A stretch of 36,774 bases of DNA from a virus (Duplodnaviria > Heunggongvirae > Uroviricota > Caudoviricetes), in the IMG/VR virus record IMGVR_UViG_2778261162_000005; one strand, written 5' to 3'. The notes beneath the pieces were generated by a model. It ran no database searches. It was not told where the DNA came from and worked only from the letters and a program-made list of their open reading frames with translations. Below are positions 2,491 to 15,472 of the stretch, in pieces (positions within the stretch are counted from its first letter, which is position 1; each line of letters begins with the position of its first letter). Both the position numbers and the translations under genes were made by a program.

Positions 2491-3123
2491 TCATTCATCG
2501 TTCGTTGCACGAACGCGCCTGATCTCCACTCTGGCAATCTGATCTGCTGGAATATAGGTTGCCAGAGCTCCCCAGTACTTATCAACCACGCCTTTATACT
2601 CTTCCCATTCGTTACTGCCTGAAGGGCTGCTGTGCGTGACGTAAAGAACCATATCGCCTTTATTCCCCAGGGTAAACGGACCGTTAGGCCACTCTTCAAA
2701 GTTCCCTGGCAGCCGTGACATCATACCGGAACCATCGCGAAGAATCACTCTGACCTCGGTAACGCTGAAGCCTGTTTGATCAAACATTGCCTGCCATGCT
2801 GAGCTGGTATCGTCAGACCATGAAATATCATTATTCCACAGTAATCTGTACATCCATTTGCGACCGTACCTGCGCCACCACGCACCGCATGTAACGGCAC
2901 ACAGAAGTGCTGGTGGTGTTGCCAGCCAGGCATTCAGACCTGCCCACATAACAGCCTGGTAAGCCATCATTGCTGTCAGGCCAAAAATCAGCGAAGAAAA
3001 AGTCACCTCAATGGGCTTGTGGTGATCCTTCAGTCCCACATTCGCAATAAAATACCCAATATAGCCACTGGTCAGGGTCACCAGTGTTGCCCATGGCAGA
3101 TTTAACAACGAAACGTCAAACAT
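2491..3123 (-). CDS. Membrane protein with about 3 N-terminal TM helices and a soluble C-terminal domain; unknown function
   Basis: Start taken at internal ATG 3123 (MFDVSLLNLPWATL...) because GGAGA precedes it; hydrophobic N-terminal about 100 aa, soluble C-terminal about 110 aa; lies downstream of the early-operon terminator. Confidence 0.6.
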   Translation of the reverse strand: MFDVSLLNLPWATLVTLTSGYIGYFIANVGLKDHHKPIEVTFSSLIFGLTAMMAYQAVMWAGLNAWLATPPALLCAVTCGAWWRRYGRKWMYRLLWNNDISWSDDTSSAWQAMFDQTGFSVTEVRVILRDGSGMMSRLPGNFEEWPNGPFTLGNKGDMVLYVTHSSPSGSNEWEEYKGVVDKYWGALATYIPADQIARVEIRRVRATNDE

Positions 3124-3161
3124 ATTTTCTCCCTGCATCCTGAATACTAAAGAGAGAGCAT

Positions 3162-3198
3162 AAAAAAAGCACGGTAAGGGGTCTACCGTGCTTTTATA
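3162..3198 (-). terminator. Rho-independent terminator ending the early operon after mor
   Basis: Read on the minus strand: GCACGGTA-loop-TACCGTGC followed by TTTTTTTATG; plus-strand side has TTTTAT as well. Confidence 0.6.
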
Positions 3199-4485: not shown

Positions 4486-5165
4486 CTGGCCTCCAGTTTC
4501 TGTTGTTCCTGCCCACTGACCGGGCGGTGCAGTCTGACGTTCTGCCCTTCACGAAACCCCGCATAGCGCGAGGCGTCGCCATTGCGGCTTCTTCCCGGTT
4601 GACGCGCCCTGGTGGTTTGCGTTTGCGGGTATTTATGTTCCAGCCACTGTTGCATCAGTTCACGCTCATCATCGGTCAGGGCAAAGGACTGTATTTTACT
4701 GATAACGGCCAGTACCCAGCCTTCAGCAAACTGGTCTCCACGGCTGGTACGGGTGGCGTTTTTTATTCTTTTGTTCTGTGCGCTGATATACTGCTGACGC
4801 GCCTTTTTCAGCTGGCGGACCAGCACTTCCCAGGTGTACGCAGCCAGTGCCGCTCGTTCCCGGTTACCGTAGAACCCCACAGACGGATGCGTGCCGGGGT
4901 GAATGATGGAGTTAACACCAAATGCCTCGCGGATGATGTTCATCAGGCCCAGCATGTAGCGCGGTGGACGGAGACTGCCTGTCGGCCAGTAATGACTGAT
5001 GGTTTCATCAATATCACTCATAGCAATGTCGGAATGTGTGATGCCGTGAACATCCATCAGTTTACGGGCTCGGCGCAGTGCCAGAGCGGCCTCGTGCGGG
5101 TTGCCGGATGCGGCCAGCGCCAGCAACTTTTTCAGTTTCTCAATGTGTTTATTCTGGTCTGTCAT
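4482..5165 (-). CDS. Hypothetical early protein, DUF2786-like N-terminus
   Basis: Start at ATG 5165 (MTDQNKHIEKLKKLLALAASGNPHEAALALRRARKLM...) with GGAGA upstream; N-terminal motif resembles the DUF2786 family common in prophages (recalled). Confidence 0.45.
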   Translation of the reverse strand: MTDQNKHIEKLKKLLALAASGNPHEAALALRRARKLMDVHGITHSDIAMSDIDETISHYWPTGSLRPPRYMLGLMNIIREAFGVNSIIHPGTHPSVGFYGNRERAALAAYTWEVLVRQLKKARQQYISAQNKRIKNATRTSRGDQFAEGWVLAVISKIQSFALTDDERELMQQWLEHKYPQTQTTRARQPGRSRNGDASRYAGFREGQNVRLHRPVSGQEQQKLEAR

Positions 5166-11321: not shown

Positions 11322-11510
11322 TCAGGCTGCCTGAGCTGTTGATTTCAGCCCCAACTTCACGGCGATTTCATGGGATTTACCGTAACGGGCTTTGGTCTGC
11401 CCATTGAGAACGCGGTATACCTCATTGCGGTTGTAGCCGTTTTCTTCTGCCCAGCGGGTGAAAGTGATCCCGCGCTGGCGGAAGAGAGCTTTGACTTGTT
11501 CTGCAGTCAT
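11322..11510 (-). CDS. Ner/Cro-like small DNA-binding protein, first gene of the early operon
   Basis: 62 aa; AAGGAGA 6 nt upstream; divergent from the repressor gene, the position Ner occupies in Mu. Confidence 0.5.
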   Translation of the reverse strand: MTAEQVKALFRQRGITFTRWAEENGYNRNEVYRVLNGQTKARYGKSHEIAVKLGLKSTAQAA

Positions 11511-11610
11511 CGTTGTCTCCTTTGTTGATGCAATGATGTTTGCCTTATGTGTGATAGATTATGGTGCAGATTATCTCACCAGTCAACTTAAAGAGTGCAG
11601 AAAAACTCAC
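11511..11610. promoter_or_regulatory. Divergent early/repressor promoter-operator region
   Basis: 100-bp gap between divergent starts; contains direct repeats AGATTAT (x2) within TGATAGATTATGGTGCAGATTATCTCA. Confidence 0.45.
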
Positions 11611-11949
11611 ATGATCGGGTTACGTATTAAAGAAGAAAGAGAGCGTCTATCTCTTACACAGCAAGGGTTGGCTGATGCTATAGGTGTGGCAAAGAGAACT
11701 TTCATTGATTGGGAAAAAGATCGCACTTCTCCTACTGCAGTGCAGTTATCTGCACTATCAGAAATCGGTGTAGATATTTTGTATGTAGTTACTGGGGTGC
11801 GGAGTCAGCCTGTTGTTGCACCTTATGTGTCACAAGAAAAGAAAGAGTTAATGGATGCATTCGACGAAATGAGCCCCGAACAACGGAGGGCAATTCTTGA
11901 GGTCGGCAAAGTCTTCATTCAACCCAAACCAAGCAAACTCGCAGGCTGA
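11611..11949 (+). CDS. XRE-family HTH repressor (c-like)
   Basis: MIGLRIKEERERLSLTQQGLADAIGVAKRTFIDWEKDRTSP is a typical XRE HTH; divergent from the early operon. Confidence 0.6.
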   Translation: MIGLRIKEERERLSLTQQGLADAIGVAKRTFIDWEKDRTSPTAVQLSALSEIGVDILYVVTGVRSQPVVAPYVSQEKKELMDAFDEMSPEQRRAILEVGKVFIQPKPSKLAG

Positions 11950-12035: not shown

Positions 12036-12065
12036 CCGGAAAGCATTGTGCTTTCCGGTTTTGTT
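12036..12065 (+). terminator. Rho-independent terminator after the repressor gene
   Basis: CCGGAAAG-CATTGTG-CTTTCCGG followed by TTTTGTT, between convergent repressor and Dam genes. Confidence 0.55.
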
Positions 12066-12829
12066 CAGAAGTTGCAGATTACCAGTTCACGGCGTGGCGT
12101 GGGTTTCCCCGCCAGACTGTAGTTGATATTCACCGTCTGTATGTTCAGTTCAGTGAACACCCGACGCATCTGCGGAATGTCATTCACCGAGATAATCATC
12201 TTTCCTCTGATGCACCGTGCCAGTTCTGCGAGTAGTGTGTAGTTCTCTTCAGGAAAATCCACACCATAGCCTTCCGTCCCCAGATAGGGCGGATCACAGT
12301 AGAACAGCGTGTGCGGACGGTCATAACGCTTAATGCACTGGTGCCAGTCCATGTGTTCTATCACCGTTCTGGAAAGCCGCAGGTGTGCCGCTGACAGTTC
12401 TTCTTCAATCCGTAGCAGGTTGAAGCGTGGCGGGGAGGTGGTGGAGGTGCCGAAGCTGTGCTCTGCCACCTTGCCCCCAAACGCCTGCTTCTGGAGGTAG
12501 TAGAACCGTGCCGCACGCTGGATATCCGTCAGTGTTTCTTCCGGGGTGATCTGCAGCCATTTGTAGATCTGCCGGCTAACCAGCGCCCATTTGAATTGGC
12601 GGACAAATTCTTCCAGATGATGCTTTACTACCCGATACAGATTTACCAGTTCACCGTTGATATCGTTAATGACTTCGATCTTGCTGGGAGTCTTGAGAAA
12701 ATAAAGTGCTGCTGCGCCGCAGAATGGCTCCACATAGCAGGTATGGAGTGGGAACTGAGGCAGAATGTGTTTGGCCAGACGACGTTTTCCCCCAATCCAG
12801 GGGACGATGGGTAAAGATTGTTCTTTCAT
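12065..12829 (-). CDS. DNA N6-adenine methyltransferase, Dam-like (D12 class)
   Basis: Start at ATG 12829 (MKEQSLPIVPWIGGKRRL...); FCGAAAL AdoMet motif and DPPY catalytic motif. Confidence 0.8.
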   Translation of the reverse strand: MKEQSLPIVPWIGGKRRLAKHILPQFPLHTCYVEPFCGAAALYFLKTPSKIEVINDINGELVNLYRVVKHHLEEFVRQFKWALVSRQIYKWLQITPEETLTDIQRAARFYYLQKQAFGGKVAEHSFGTSTTSPPRFNLLRIEEELSAAHLRLSRTVIEHMDWHQCIKRYDRPHTLFYCDPPYLGTEGYGVDFPEENYTLLAELARCIRGKMIISVNDIPQMRRVFTELNIQTVNINYSLAGKPTPRRELVICNF

Positions 12830-12935
12830 TATCTGTAAGCCTTTTTCATTAGATGAAAATGCGATAGGCTTCCCTTGTTCTCGAGAACGGAAGAGCCTCG
12901 GTTGACTCACAGCTCATACCTGTAAGTTGATGACT
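12786..12935. repeat. Direct repeat copy 1 (Dam 5' end plus upstream region)
   Basis: Aligns by hand with 13419-13565; shared blocks CCAATCCA.GG.ACGATGGGTAA, TTTCAT.ATCTGTAA and CCTCGGT.G.CTCACAG..CAT.CCTGT. Confidence 0.6.
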
Positions 12936-12964
12936 CGCCTTGTGTTCGCTGCACAAGGTGAGTC
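12932..12964. promoter_or_regulatory. Imperfect palindrome upstream of P1 (hairpin or operator)
   Basis: GACTCGCCTTGTG-TTCGCTG-CACAAGGTGAGTC followed by GCTCTTTTC; GACTC/GAGTC motif occurs three times in 12903-12964. Confidence 0.4.
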
Positions 12965-13023
12965 GCTCTTTTCATGTTATTTGCATATTTCATGGGCGAC
13001 AATTAAAGGGAGTTACTAATACC

Positions 13024-13404
13024 ATGGCCCCAAAAAATATTGAGCGGTTTAATGAAATAGTTGGTGAGATATTTGGGAGACTCTACGAATCTTTCCCCGT
13101 CAAAATTGATATAAAGGCAGTTGATATCGTTAGACAGAATGAACTTACTTTTTTTCTTGATACCGTAGACTGGCTTAAAAACAGTGGCTATTTAATCGGG
13201 GCGCGTAGTTCTGGGGGGATCCACAACGCAGTGCTAACGGCTAAAGGTCTTGAGGTATTAAACGCTACGCCTGGAAGTCTGGAAAAACCGTTGGGGGCCA
13301 GAATATCTGACTCTATAAAAATTGAAGGGAAAGAAGCGTTGCGATCACTGGTTAGCCAGACTCTAGGAATAGGTCTGCAATATATGTCTCGTGGTCTTAT
13401 GTAA
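13024..13404 (+). CDS. Hypothetical protein P1 (126 aa), paralog of 13868-14272; unknown family
   Basis: ATG 13024 (MAPKNIERFNEIVGEIFGRL...); body visibly AT-rich; shares GxIFxRL, F(L/I)DTxxWL and VLTxKxLxxLNAxP motifs with P2. Confidence 0.6.
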   Translation: MAPKNIERFNEIVGEIFGRLYESFPVKIDIKAVDIVRQNELTFFLDTVDWLKNSGYLIGARSSGGIHNAVLTAKGLEVLNATPGSLEKPLGARISDSIKIEGKEALRSLVSQTLGIGLQYMSRGLM

Positions 13405-13464
13405 TATCGCAAGGCAGCGTTTGCCACCAATCCATGGAACGATGGGTAATGTCTGCGTTTTCAT
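13363..13464 (-). pseudogene. Truncated Dam 5' fragment (copy 2)
   Basis: Minus-strand ATG 13464: MKTQTLPIVPWIGGKR matches the Dam N-terminus, then the frame runs into the antisense of the P1 3' end and stops after 33 codons. Confidence 0.55.
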
Positions 13465-13565
13465 AATCTGTAAACATTTTACAATTATTAAAAATATGGC
13501 AGGCTAGTCTGGTCTCACGAGACTGACTGAACCTCGGTCGGCTCACAGTGCATTCCTGTGGGACG
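13419..13565. repeat. Direct repeat copy 2 (Dam 5' fragment plus upstream region)
   Basis: See copy 1; same orientation, immediately 3' of P1. Confidence 0.6.
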
Positions 13566-13609
13566 ATGGCCAGCCCGGCTTTCGGGTGCCGGGCTGGTCG
13601 TTCTTTCAT
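13562..13609 (-). pseudogene. Dam 5' fragment (copy 3) interrupted by a 28-bp palindrome
   Basis: Minus strand ATGAAAGAAC...CCATCGTCCC matches the Dam start, with CCAGCCCGG-CACCCGAAAG-CCGGGCTGG inserted between; on the plus strand the palindrome is followed by TCGTTCTTTC (terminator-like). Confidence 0.5.
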
Positions 13610-13653
13610 GATGCGGCAGGGATAGTGGGATTTCTGTTAATGCGGTTTAGGGA

Positions 13654-13869
13654 TTATCCGGGGTGATTTTCTGACCTTATCTGGTCCAGGGCGTAAGTGA
13701 GCCCTTCTGCAAAAACAGAAGTATCAAACTGCTTTTGTATTTCCTGAAAATGAACAGTGGCACGACAGATACTCAGTTCTCCGCGATGTAACCGGATAAT
13801 ATCTTCCAGAACATTGTTCACTGCTTCAGCACGGCGCTGATGTTCTGTTAACGTTAATCGGGGATTCAT
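13654..13869 (-). CDS. Hypothetical small protein (71 aa)
   Basis: ATG 13869 with AAGGAG 7 nt upstream; charged, helix-prone; its start overlaps the P2 start on the opposite strand. Confidence 0.35.
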   Translation of the reverse strand: MNPRLTLTEHQRRAEAVNNVLEDIIRLHRGELSICRATVHFQEIQKQFDTSVFAEGLTYALDQIRSENHPG

Positions 13870-14272
13870 GATGCACTCCTTAAATGATGATTTTTATGTA
13901 CTCACCGGCAAAATATTCTGCCGATTACTGAACACGCATCCGGTACCTCAGGTTTTGATTTATTCTGGTTTTTTCGATATCCCGGACCAGGTTGATCACG
14001 ACCAGAAAAAGTGCCGGTATTTTATTGATACGCTGATATGGCTTCGGGATAACAGCTATATTCGTTACTCTCAGTTGCTGGCTGTGGGAGCGGCTGATGT
14101 CGTCCTCACGGAAAAAACGCTCTGTCTGCTCAATGCCATGCCGACCTTTCTGCAGCCCCGGCCCGTGCCATTTAAAGAGTCGCTTCTGGATGCAGTAAAA
14201 ACCGGTGAAAATGCAGTCATCGCTGAATGCGTATCCCGGATTATGCGTTACGTGTTTAATGAACGTAAGTGA
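13868..14272 (+). CDS. Hypothetical protein P2 (134 aa), paralog of 13024-13404; unknown family
   Basis: N-termini of P1 and P2 align without gaps from the first Met (F9, G14, I16, F17), supporting this start. Confidence 0.55.
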   Translation: MMHSLNDDFYVLTGKIFCRLLNTHPVPQVLIYSGFFDIPDQVDHDQKKCRYFIDTLIWLRDNSYIRYSQLLAVGAADVVLTEKTLCLLNAMPTFLQPRPVPFKESLLDAVKTGENAVIAECVSRIMRYVFNERK

Positions 14273-14991
14273 GGTTTATCCGTTGTCTGCATAATCCCGA
14301 TAGCCAGTGCGAGGGGAAGCAATTCCGGGGAAACTTTTTCAAACAGCGATTCCCATTCTCCTCTCGCCATCACTCTGTCCAGCCCGCCCTCCAGCTGCAT
14401 TTCAGCAATCTTCCTGATTTCCCGGAACAACGCCGCTTTGATCTCTTCATGCTCAGCTTTATTTTCCGGTGTCAGAATGTATTCGTCGAAGAACCGGGGA
14501 GGCTGGTTAACGGGGATTGTGTTCACCGGGATGTGTTCCTGCTTCCCGTACTTCGGGGCCGAAAAACATTCTGTTGGCTGACCAGCGAGTTTACGTAACT
14601 CCTTCATGAGCAGCTCCTGATCGTAAACTGTCATCAGTGCCGCAATGGTGGCATGCAGTGCATCGGGCAGTATCCAGGGTTGCCGGCCCGTGGGGCATAT
14701 AACATCCAGCAGCTCATTCGTCCGACAGATACGCTCCTCGCCGTATGACAACAGGCCCTGTCCCGTGTATTCCTCCAGCCTGATCACTGTGCCAGCCCGT
14801 GGCTTCTGCCAGGTCGTCAGATCATCGCCACTCATACGGCGCTCATTCTCCACGTCAGCAGCATCGACAATGACGCTGTTTCCGAGTTCCTGTTTCACCA
14901 TCTCTTCTATCCGCGCCAGTACGTAACTTTTACCGCTGCCCACAGGACCGGACACAGTGACAGTGATGACCGGATTCAGTGTGTGCGTCAT
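14248..14991 (-). CDS. P-loop NTPase / kinase-like protein of unknown type
   Basis: 247 aa; Walker A GPVGSGKS at residues 15-22, Walker B-like VIVDAAD; C-terminal about 170 aa without recognisable motif. Confidence 0.6.
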   Translation of the reverse strand: MTHTLNPVITVTVSGPVGSGKSYVLARIEEMVKQELGNSVIVDAADVENERRMSGDDLTTWQKPRAGTVIRLEEYTGQGLLSYGEERICRTNELLDVICPTGRQPWILPDALHATIAALMTVYDQELLMKELRKLAGQPTECFSAPKYGKQEHIPVNTIPVNQPPRFFDEYILTPENKAEHEEIKAALFREIRKIAEMQLEGGLDRVMARGEWESLFEKVSPELLPLALAIGIMQTTDKPHLRSLNT

Positions 14992-15121
14992 ATCGTATTC
15001 TCCTCTGTGAATAATTCATCGTTTATCCTGCACACCCCGTATCCCCGGCTCTCTTAACGCGCTTTAAAATCCTTCGCGCCCTGTATTTGTGATGCTGTCT
15101 CCACCAGACAAGGAGACACAC

Positions 15122-15472
15122 ATGAAAAGCCTGAAAAAATTCATTCCCCCTGTTAAAAAACCTCGCCTCAGCGGCTGGCTGCTGACCTCAGTGCTGTTGC
15201 TGGGCACCATCGCTCTGGTCTCGCCACAGCAGTTGCCTGTTGTGATCTACAAGCTGGCACTCATCACGCTGGCAGCAGTGCTGGGTTACTGGCTTGACCG
15301 TTCGCTCTTCCCCAAAGCCCGTCCCGGTCAGTACCTGAAACATGACGACAGGCTGATGGCTGAAGGGCGTTTCCCTGTGCAGACCGGCCTTCACCTTGTG
15401 TTTGCTGCTGCGTTAATCCGCCGTGCACTGATTGTTGCAGCGATCTGTCTGGCTGTGGCAACAGGACTGTGA
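15122..15472 (+). CDS. Putative holin (3 predicted TM segments)
   Basis: 116 aa, GGAGA RBS; three hydrophobic helices; first gene of the lysis cassette. Confidence 0.5.
   Translation: MKSLKKFIPPVKKPRLSGWLLTSVLLLGTIALVSPQQLPVVIYKLALITLAAVLGYWLDRSLFPKARPGQYLKHDDRLMAEGRFPVQTGLHLVFAAALIRRALIVAAICLAVATGL

Follow-up and report, generated by a model that had tools for sequence, protein, structure and literature searches.

Two divergent genes overlap at their start codons in an E. coli prophage

The window, by which we mean the whole stretch of 36,774 nucleotides that was analyzed (IMG/VR record IMGVR_UViG_2778261162_000005), is identical in sequence to positions 1958280-1995053 of E. coli M-17 (NZ_CP068394.1). 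Two of its genes lie on opposite strands and begin within the same four nucleotides. The small partner, orf71 (13654..13869, minus strand; 71 codons; phrog_4490), encodes a 71-aa protein with a predicted three-helix bundle. The large partner, P2 (13868..14272, plus strand; 134 codons; phrog_2266), encodes a 134-aa protein with a probable winged-helix core. PGAP annotates both genes in E. coli M-17 (WP_001069608.1 and WP_000972296.1, respectively) at exactly the same coordinates. To simplify the nomenclature, P2 and P1 refer here to genes of the window, and "P2-like phages" refers to the phage group.

The junction between the two genes is a CATG tetranucleotide (13867..13870), the central AT of which is common to both start codons. 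The minus-strand ATG of orf71 reads as CAT at 13867-13869 and the ATG of P2 occupies 13868-13870, an overlap of 2 nt; if P2 starts instead at a second in-frame ATG (13871-13873), there is a 1-nt gap. The SD sequence of orf71, AAGGAG (plus-strand CTCCTT, 13876..13881, minus strand), lies 6 nt before its ATG and within codons 3-5 of P2, and an SD-like GGGGA for P2 (13860..13864, plus strand) lies within codons 2-4 of orf71 (Pro-Arg codons). A first-pass annotation had placed the start of orf71 at 13869-13867, with AAGGAG inside the first codons of P2, and the start of P2 at 13868 or 13871, overlapping that of orf71. Direct reading of the sequence confirmed both placements.

The prophage that carries this pair is BcepMu-like and transposable, and is inserted in the trehalose-6-phosphate synthase gene, beside flhDC and uspC. 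Its early genes (Mor, Gam, transposase, and Ner-like) are on the minus strand, and its c/ner immunity region (an HTH repressor and Ner-like pair) spans 11322..11949, with the HTH repressor at 11491..11949 on the plus strand. The accessory stretch runs in the order dam (minus), P1 (plus), orf71 (minus), P2 (plus), and a 247-aa gene (minus), followed by plus-strand lysis and structural genes; a dam remnant and dam, both on the minus strand, lie beyond orf71 in the window. In BcepMu, the corresponding slot is filled by other genes, all on the plus strand, which is why we regard the accessory stretch as variable cargo. The region is present in 540 of 5426 complete E. coli genomes (~10%).

Both open reading frames are conserved as genes

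A syntenic prophage of Serratia marcescens has the order dam (minus), a 73-aa gene (minus), a P2 homolog (plus), an 89-aa gene (minus), and holin (plus). Its proteins are 36% identical to orf71 and 53% identical to P2. The Serratia junction reads CATGATG, with the GGAGG of the minus gene within codons 3-4 of the plus gene and an SD-like AAGGGA of the plus gene within the first codons of the minus gene. Conservation of orf71 in homologous loci, which the first-pass annotation had named as a check, is therefore seen in Serratia, where the ortholog has the same frame, length, and position. By codon position, identity between E. coli and Serratia is 0.47/0.69/0.27 for orf71 and 0.64/0.76/0.43 for P2, a pattern that points to protein-coding constraint with saturated synonymous sites.

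Judged by such comparisons, orf71 and P2 are both real genes that belong to conserved families under purifying selection. The match of orf71 to phrog_4490 covers 71 of 71 positions (E 5e-50), that of P2 to phrog_2266 covers profile positions 1-142 of 144 (E 8e-45), and the AF2 model of orf71 is a confident three-helix bundle (pLDDT 89). The PHROG families, the PGAP annotation, purifying selection, and this model together refute the option, raised in the first-pass annotation, that one of the two ORFs is spurious.

Four observations had lent that option some weight. Among 5.8 billion proteins, orf71 has direct relatives only in E. coli and Serratia marcescens; its polymorphisms within E. coli show a weak codon-position bias (7/4/8); its within-E. 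coli dN/dS is 0.2-0.7, on very few changes; and P2 was left unannotated by the depositors of the phage PhiKM record. The within-E. coli dN/dS and codon-position counts are underpowered, comprising 5-12 substitutions. Against these observations stand the Serratia ortholog of orf71, in which third-position identity is at the random level while second-position identity is high, and the relationship of orf71 to a wider small-partner family (hhalign 95%) whose dN/dS is 0.04-0.25. In addition, variants that have lost P2 still carry an intact orf71, and the P2 family comprises hundreds of cluster representatives (see below).

The head-to-head junction is a trait of the gene family

We searched exhaustively with HMMER and a P2/P1 profile at a cut-off of E<=1e-3. 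The search for phrog_2266-type proteins yielded 926 cluster representatives, all single-domain and ~125-155 aa long, with a conserved N-terminus, M-x(1-4)-S-N-I-E-x-F-[DN]. A tblastn search against isolated phages found ~32%-identical homologs in three members of the P2-like group (Salmonella FSL SP-004, Escherichia phage Midge, and Klebsiella ST147-VIM1phi7.1). Each of the three deposited annotations includes a 63-64-aa gene on the opposite strand that overlaps the start of the family gene (gp39 in FSL SP-004) by 2 nt, and the authors of phage Midge had placed each RBS inside the opposite gene.

Two scans extended these observations. In the P2-like subgroup, scanned in IMG/VR, the CATG junction is present in 52 of 52 loci. 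A second scan, of another family branch, covered 80 loci at 34-54% identity; a CATG-linked ORF of 58-106 codons was found on the opposite strand in 51 of the 77 assessable loci, and about a dozen further loci have a head-to-head partner at most 4 nt away. The same CATG arrangement was found for 39 of 353 control ORFs from these loci (11%). Because the junction is kept in Serratia at 36% and 53% protein identity, and family-wide at a frequency far from the 11% of controls, its conservation is greater than expected by chance. Within E. coli, the junction lies in a 70-nt invariant stretch that is marginally unusual (P about 0.04-0.09). As far as the compared loci tell, the head-to-head CATG pair is a trait of the gene family, seen at more than 100 loci, and not a local oddity; because these loci are related by descent, fewer independent observations underlie the counts than the numbers suggest. 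[quoted passage not shown]

Anchored on the junction, the sequences give the consensus GGAG-N8-CATG-N7/8-CTCC, with a GGAG-type motif before 44 of 49 small genes and 39 of 49 large genes. The serine codon that precedes N-I-E in the large protein is TCC in 45 of the 49 loci with a CATG partner vs 12 of 28 without one. We suggest that this bias towards TCC, the complement of GGA, is a dual-coding signature. Both partners evolve under constraint: dN/dS is 0.22 for the small and 0.09 for the large gene in P2-like phages, and 0.25 and 0.04 (small) and 0.09-0.15 (large) in two further clades. Synonymous sites are saturated (pS 0.5-0.75), while the head-to-head layout persists. The exact CATG overlap is missing at about one third of family loci, some of which have instead spacers of 0-4 nt, offsets of -1/+1, or no partner at all; partnerless large genes include P1 of the window and those of Campylobacterota phages. 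Coupling of the orf71/P2 type is not obligatory, since these loci do without the overlap or the partner.

Small partners belong to several families and flank P2 on both sides

The small partners of the second scan belong to phrog_25421. A profile of this type matched orf71 over its full length (hmmsearch, 20.5 bits), and none of 353 six-frame decoys from the window scored besides the frames of orf71 and the 247-aa gene. With hhalign, the 95% match of orf71 to the small-partner profile has an E value of 4e-8. The 247-aa gene (14248..14991, minus strand; phrog_3787) overlaps the 3' end of P2 by 25 nt, and its product combines a weak P-loop-like N-terminus with a C-terminal small-partner-like domain (residues 181-238; 14278..14451, minus strand) that is a paralog of orf71 (hmmsearch, 28 bits; hhalign 93%, E 3e-7). 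The Serratia 89-aa protein also matches the small-partner profile (hhalign 96%), and it and the C-terminus of the 247-aa protein are mutually homologous. Given two paralogous small-partner domains, P2 is flanked on the opposite strand by orf71 head-to-head and by the 247-aa domain tail-to-tail.

At other loci, partners match phrog_25421 or phrog_2454, the latter being the partner in P2-like phages. We considered phrog_2454 as a relative of orf71 or of the other small families and rejected it, as no relationship was detectable. PHROGs lists phrog_2266, phrog_4490, phrog_25421, and phrog_2454 as "unknown function" and holds no record of their pairing or overlap.

Searches for known families gave little. 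Pfam, NCBIfam, and PADLOC returned no meaningful match for orf71, P2, P1, or their homologs, and there was no significant fold match for proteins of the orf71/P2 family. An Rfam scan of 12800-15200 found nothing real, profile scans of genome contigs found no locus, and a metagenome scan recovered close E. coli-type relatives only.

Natural variants keep one partner without the other

P1 (13024..13404, plus strand) is a second phrog_2266 gene of the window (E 1e-35), 28% identical to P2. Its small partner is reduced to a remnant of 11 codons (12990..13025, minus strand; MVLVTPFNCRP followed by a stop codon), the N-terminus of which resembles the MSLTP start of phrog_25421 members. P1 keeps both a GGGAG SD and the CATG, here within CCATGG (13022-13027).

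The reverse situation also occurs. Alignment of the deletion variants L024 and L025 with the window shows that they lack a 325-nt segment of P2 (13922..14246), a deletion also present in at least 8 complete E. coli genomes; one prophage with P2 deleted is that of NZ_CP029741.1. It spares the first 54 nt of P2, which hold the RBS and leader of orf71, as well as the 3' end that overlaps the 247-aa gene. In these variants, orf71 is intact and lies 53 nt downstream of the 247-aa gene. In an independent lineage, at 11 P2-like-phage loci, the large gene is cut to 19 codons beside an intact small gene. Deletions in two lineages thus spare the beginning of the large gene, ~55 nt that the small gene evidently requires. 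The existence of both small-only and large-only remnants argues against a strict toxin/antidote dependence; neither protein strictly needs the other to persist.

The large gene typically lies antisense within a putative lytic or late transcription unit

At 42 of 47 loci, the large gene is followed on its right by an opposite-strand gene, which often abuts it. The window has the nested order that characterizes a noncontiguous operon, with P2 (plus) between the 247-aa gene (minus) and orf71 (minus), and so does the Serratia prophage. Elsewhere, the pair occurs as TerL (minus), large (plus), small (minus), and portal (minus), or has tail sheath, gpD, holin, or CII genes as neighbors. In P2-like phages, the small gene points the same way as replication gene A, and the pair occupies the cos-proximal gpA-gpQ hotspot, which houses old, tin, and many defense systems (PMC9122126). 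From this gene order, the small gene would typically belong to a lytic or late transcription unit in which the large gene is the lone antisense gene.

Just upstream of the orf71 stop, in the plus sense, is a structured element that ends in a hairpin and a T-run and resembles a terminator (13490..13608, plus strand). Its fold z is -4.5 in E. coli and -4.4 in Serratia, where there is likewise a terminator-like match, and among 12 E. coli-type sequences the stems are kept while the loops vary. As predicted, this element would keep rightward transcription out of orf71 and P2. The promoter of P2 is likely to lie within orf71, since the plus-strand terminator-like hairpin precedes the orf71 stop in both E. 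coli and Serratia. The first-pass annotation had held that both promoters would have to sit within the other gene. This part stands as likely for P2 and falls for orf71, for which a transcript from upstream of the 247-aa gene suffices. No minus-strand terminator or sigma-70 promoter was predicted between the 247-aa gene and orf71, and consensus promoter scans in E. coli and Serratia gave nothing convincing for orf71 or P2. Promoters picked by eye, such as TTGCCG from conserved Gly-Lys codons, were rejected: they would start transcription too near the ATG to include the SD.

Discussion

We lean towards the view that orf71 and P2 form a conserved mobile cassette, the layout of which would give either/or expression of an immunity factor and its antagonist, these two roles being assigned by analogy. 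The cassette pairs a phrog_2266 protein of ~135-150 aa, probably with a winged-helix core, with a helical partner of ~60-105 aa (phrog_4490/phrog_25421), and the two genes are inherited together. The argument starts from the geometry. The genes have no DNA between them, and each SD is found 6-12 nt within the partner; an mRNA that is functional for one gene would thus be complementary to the SD and AUG of the other, and a promoter of either gene would have to be situated in the opposite gene or past it. Collision of polymerases and pairing of the two RNAs, as in a divergent excludon set inside a noncontiguous operon, would then make expression either/or. The small gene would be read from the surrounding lytic or late operon transcript, antisense through the large gene; in the window, the 247-aa gene is the candidate first gene of a minus-strand transcript that would include orf71 and possibly dam. 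The large gene would be driven by a separate promoter, located within the small gene or past it. By analogy, the large protein may be an accessory or immunity factor expressed in lysogeny, and the small protein may be its antagonist in the lytic cycle. The first-pass annotation had spoken of a mutually exclusive, switch-like arrangement. Its anatomical part holds, with embedded initiation regions at more than 100 loci and antisense nesting, and exclusive expression itself is read from the geometry.

The arrangement could instead serve a protein switch. P2 would be a winged-helix repressor or autoregulator that acts at the junction and controls the small gene and the minus-strand operon including dam; the small protein would be an anti-repressor or Cro-like, and the start overlap would only set an operator over both initiation regions. 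The probable winged-helix core of P2 belongs here, as does the quality of the prediction: the P2 model has a moderate pLDDT of 66, and the fold matches on which winged-helix membership was assessed are weak and mixed with unrelated helical proteins. Moreover, there is no Pfam HTH match among 69 members, and, apart from CATG and the two SDs, the junction shows no evident conserved inverted repeat. A position between terminase and portal, or beside sheath, gpD, or holin, would be odd for a dedicated regulator, and the prophage already has its c/ner immunity region at 11322-11949. We consider a protein switch unlikely, though the foremost of the alternatives. A switch of the CI/Cro type in particular was rejected, as there is no intergenic region, a repressor/Ner-like pair already exists at 11322..11949, and the cassette occupies many non-immunity positions.

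A second alternative denies the overlap any regulatory role. Phage genomes are compact, and the CATG overlap may be a frozen accident of compaction, kept since indels would damage a start codon or RBS. The members with 0-4 nt spacers or -1/+1 offsets imply that the exact 2-nt overlap is dispensable, and within E. coli the junction is invariant to a degree that is only marginally unusual. However, the zero-gap head-to-head layout has outlasted the saturation of synonymous sites and is kept while the cassette moves among unrelated genomic positions, and divergent overlaps are otherwise extremely rare, as the K-12 figures attest. Furthermore, zero-gap divergent genes force overlapping transcription, whatever their origin. 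We rate a frozen accident as somewhat less probable than a protein switch.

A third possibility is a toxin-antitoxin-like or abortive-infection pair, in which both proteins are made together and the small one neutralizes a toxic large one. Such a pair would fit a two-gene cassette of a small helical protein and a larger partner, its place in the defense hotspot gpA-gpQ of P2-like phages (PMC9122126), and the finding that small-only remnants are commoner than large-only ones. Classical type II toxin-antitoxin genes, however, are co-directional and co-transcribed, whereas orf71 and P2 are divergent. The pair has no match to a toxin-antitoxin or defense family in Pfam, NCBIfam, or PADLOC, on which grounds, together with the divergent genes, a type II module is ruled out. 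Large-only copies also exist, namely P1, with its 11-codon partner, and the partnerless loci. A looser pair of this kind is improbable. Last, the idea that one ORF, most likely orf71, is a chance frame or an annotation artifact, P2 alone being a gene, is scarcely credible in view of the family memberships and codon-position pattern given above.

The preferred either/or cassette has precedents in temperate phages. The noncontiguous operon is a concept of Saenz-Lahoya et al. 2019, as cited in PMC12288877. In excludons and noncontiguous operons, interference and RNase III-sensitive duplexes lead to mutually exclusive expression (PMC12288877). Phage 80alpha of S. aureus carries a noncontiguous operon with Tha-1 and Ith-1, an immunity gene and its inhibitor (PMC11087260), and phi80 of E. 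coli carries TaiEcA and AtiEcA, again an immunity gene and inhibitor in a noncontiguous operon (PMC11364771). In both units, the immunity gene is on in lysogeny and the small inhibitor in the lytic cycle (PMC11087260, PMC11364771). Either/or expression has been shown experimentally in other phages (PMC11087260, PMC11364771, PMC12288877). In phi80, the 204-aa tai and 76-aa ati genes are annotated head-to-head as orf63 (minus) and orf64 (plus), with a 20-nt 5' overlap.

Our cassette resembles the Tha/Ith and Tai/Ati units in several respects. An opposite-strand gene is nested in an operon that holds an adjacent, opposed small partner; the small gene has the orientation of lytic or late genes; and the site is an accessory or hotspot site in prophages. 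As in Tai/Ati, the large gene is opposed to a small gene that is co-oriented with the surrounding genes. Homology to Tai/Ati was rejected, with hhalign giving a probability of 0.6% for PHI80_63 vs the large profile and 0.1% for PHI80_64 vs the small profile, and, unlike Tai/Ati, the orf71/P2 family is without HEPN or any other known domain. The exact 2-nt sharing of start codons with reciprocal SDs, family-wide, also sets the cassette apart from the units in the Tha/Ith and Tai/Ati papers. Divergent excludons are neighboring divergent genes whose transcripts overlap in their 5' UTRs (PMC12288877). By their geometry, orf71 and P2 would necessarily overlap in this way if each mRNA carries its SD, with interference and RNase III-sensitive duplexes as the predicted outcome. 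The known excludons include an intergenic region and long UTRs, and in E. coli K-12 no more than 16 of the divergent type have been mapped (PMC12288877). By contrast, orf71 and P2 have no intergenic region, their overlap spans both starts and RBSs, and the arrangement is a feature of the family.

The layout also differs from the classical immunity switches. Pe/Pc of phage P2 and pR/pL of phage 186 are face-to-face promoters of opposed units, with 5'-overlapping, interfering transcripts; they converge across an intergenic gap without coding overlap and form the central immunity switch, with known repressors. Unlike Pe/Pc and pR/pL, the cassette described here lacks an intergenic region and is an accessory module that occupies many different genomic positions. 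The literature searched did not describe the cassette, a conserved CATG overlap of start codons, or divergent phage genes that overlap in this manner. The excludon/noncontiguous-operon principle is known in temperate phages; what appears to be new is the family, together with its exact reciprocal-RBS geometry and the breadth of that geometry.

Bacterial genomes contain hardly any divergent genes with overlapping starts, and the cases that are annotated are as a rule suspected of being mistakes. In the orf71/P2 family, the layout is real and marks a conserved two-gene cassette that occurs in temperate phages of the Mu-like, P2-like, and lambda-like-head types. This cassette may serve as a compact, sequence-recognizable example of the excludon/noncontiguous-operon principle, by which phages prevent an immunity function and its antidote from acting at the same time. 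It also supplies a search rule, a CATG-linked head-to-head pair with reciprocal SDs, and the natural one-partner variants are usable for tests. Two uncharacterized protein families become candidates for an immunity/antidote pair. Tentatively, and with less confidence than for the cassette itself, we raise the possibility that phrog_2266 and its small partner are a widespread pair of immunity protein and self-antidote, the logic of which is hard-wired in the DNA through the CATG common to both start codons and through RBSs that are each complementary to codons 3-5 of the opposite gene. If so, the lysogen would make the large protein from a promoter of its own, and the lytic or late transcript would silence it, through collision and duplex formation, while supplying the small inhibitor. 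Such a cassette would amount to a minimal toggle at the RNA level, carried along to any site at which the cassette inserts.

Loss of the large gene beside an intact small gene

In 11 loci of P2-like phages (L079-L089, IMG/VR, position 2001-2060), the gene of the large-partner family, phrog_2266, is cut to its first 19 codons (MSKNLELFNQQTAEVFATL*), and the small gene beside this remnant is both intact and diverged. Because the adjoining small gene has these two properties, we infer from the sequences that the truncated state of phrog_2266 is old and maintained. In a single E. coli-type viral contig (L018, 3001-3405), gene P2, the large partner, is interrupted and retains only a C-terminal open ORF of 65 aa, with orf71, the small partner, intact. 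This interruption may be a sequencing error.

Elaborations of the small-partner domain

Many phrog_25421 small partners of the "MSLTP" clade (L090-L137) end in a cysteine-rich C-terminal tail, for example, PRGRCCRCC or CRCRGCPQC; orf71 and the other small-partner clades have no such tail. The small-partner domain also recurs in the 247-aa protein (phrog_3787; 14248-14991, minus strand), which, judged by its sequence, looks like a fusion of two parts. Its C-terminal domain is homologous to the small-partner family, its N-terminus has a weak P-loop/AAA-like similarity (Pfam E 0.005-0.2, below threshold), and its Serratia counterpart consists of the small-partner-like domain only, at 89 aa. A 130-nt spacer separates the 247-aa gene from the holin gene, and here one would expect the minus-strand unit and the lysis operon to have their divergent promoters. 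Within this spacer lies a perfect palindrome, TGAATAATTCA, at 15008-15018, which is not conserved at the corresponding place in Serratia.

Organization of the flanking region

Most E. coli carriers have a single dam directly after orf71. The window instead holds a tandem cassette (12065-13464) made up of a full dam (12065..12829, minus strand), P1, a second phrog_2266 gene (13024..13404, plus strand), and what is left of another dam, its N-terminal part (13363..13464, minus strand; begins MKTQTLPIVPWIGGKR...). Just 6 of 5426 complete genomes carry this dam+P1 version, which looks like the product of recombination inside dam between two related prophages.

Another head-to-head overlap, of 20 nt, is annotated by PGAP at 11322-11949, between a Ner-like gene (11322..11510, minus strand) and an HTH repressor (11491..11949, plus strand). 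It may reflect an over-extended start, since in the related prophage L003 a shorter repressor is annotated, leaving a 92-nt gap (2547..2735 and 2828..3175).

The plus strand of the dam-orf71 spacer (13490-13608; second copy at about 12893-12975; 4655-4782 in locus L006) folds into two or three hairpins, the last a GC-rich stem with a T-run, with fold z-scores of -4.5 in E. coli and -4.4 in Serratia. Across 12 E. coli-type sequences, stems are preserved and loops vary, and the top of the terminator stem shows a C-G to T-A exchange. A search for an Rfam match to this element found none. A promoter-like TTTTCA-16-TACAAT lies at 13458-13485. The element may act as an insulating terminator or specify a small RNA on the plus strand.
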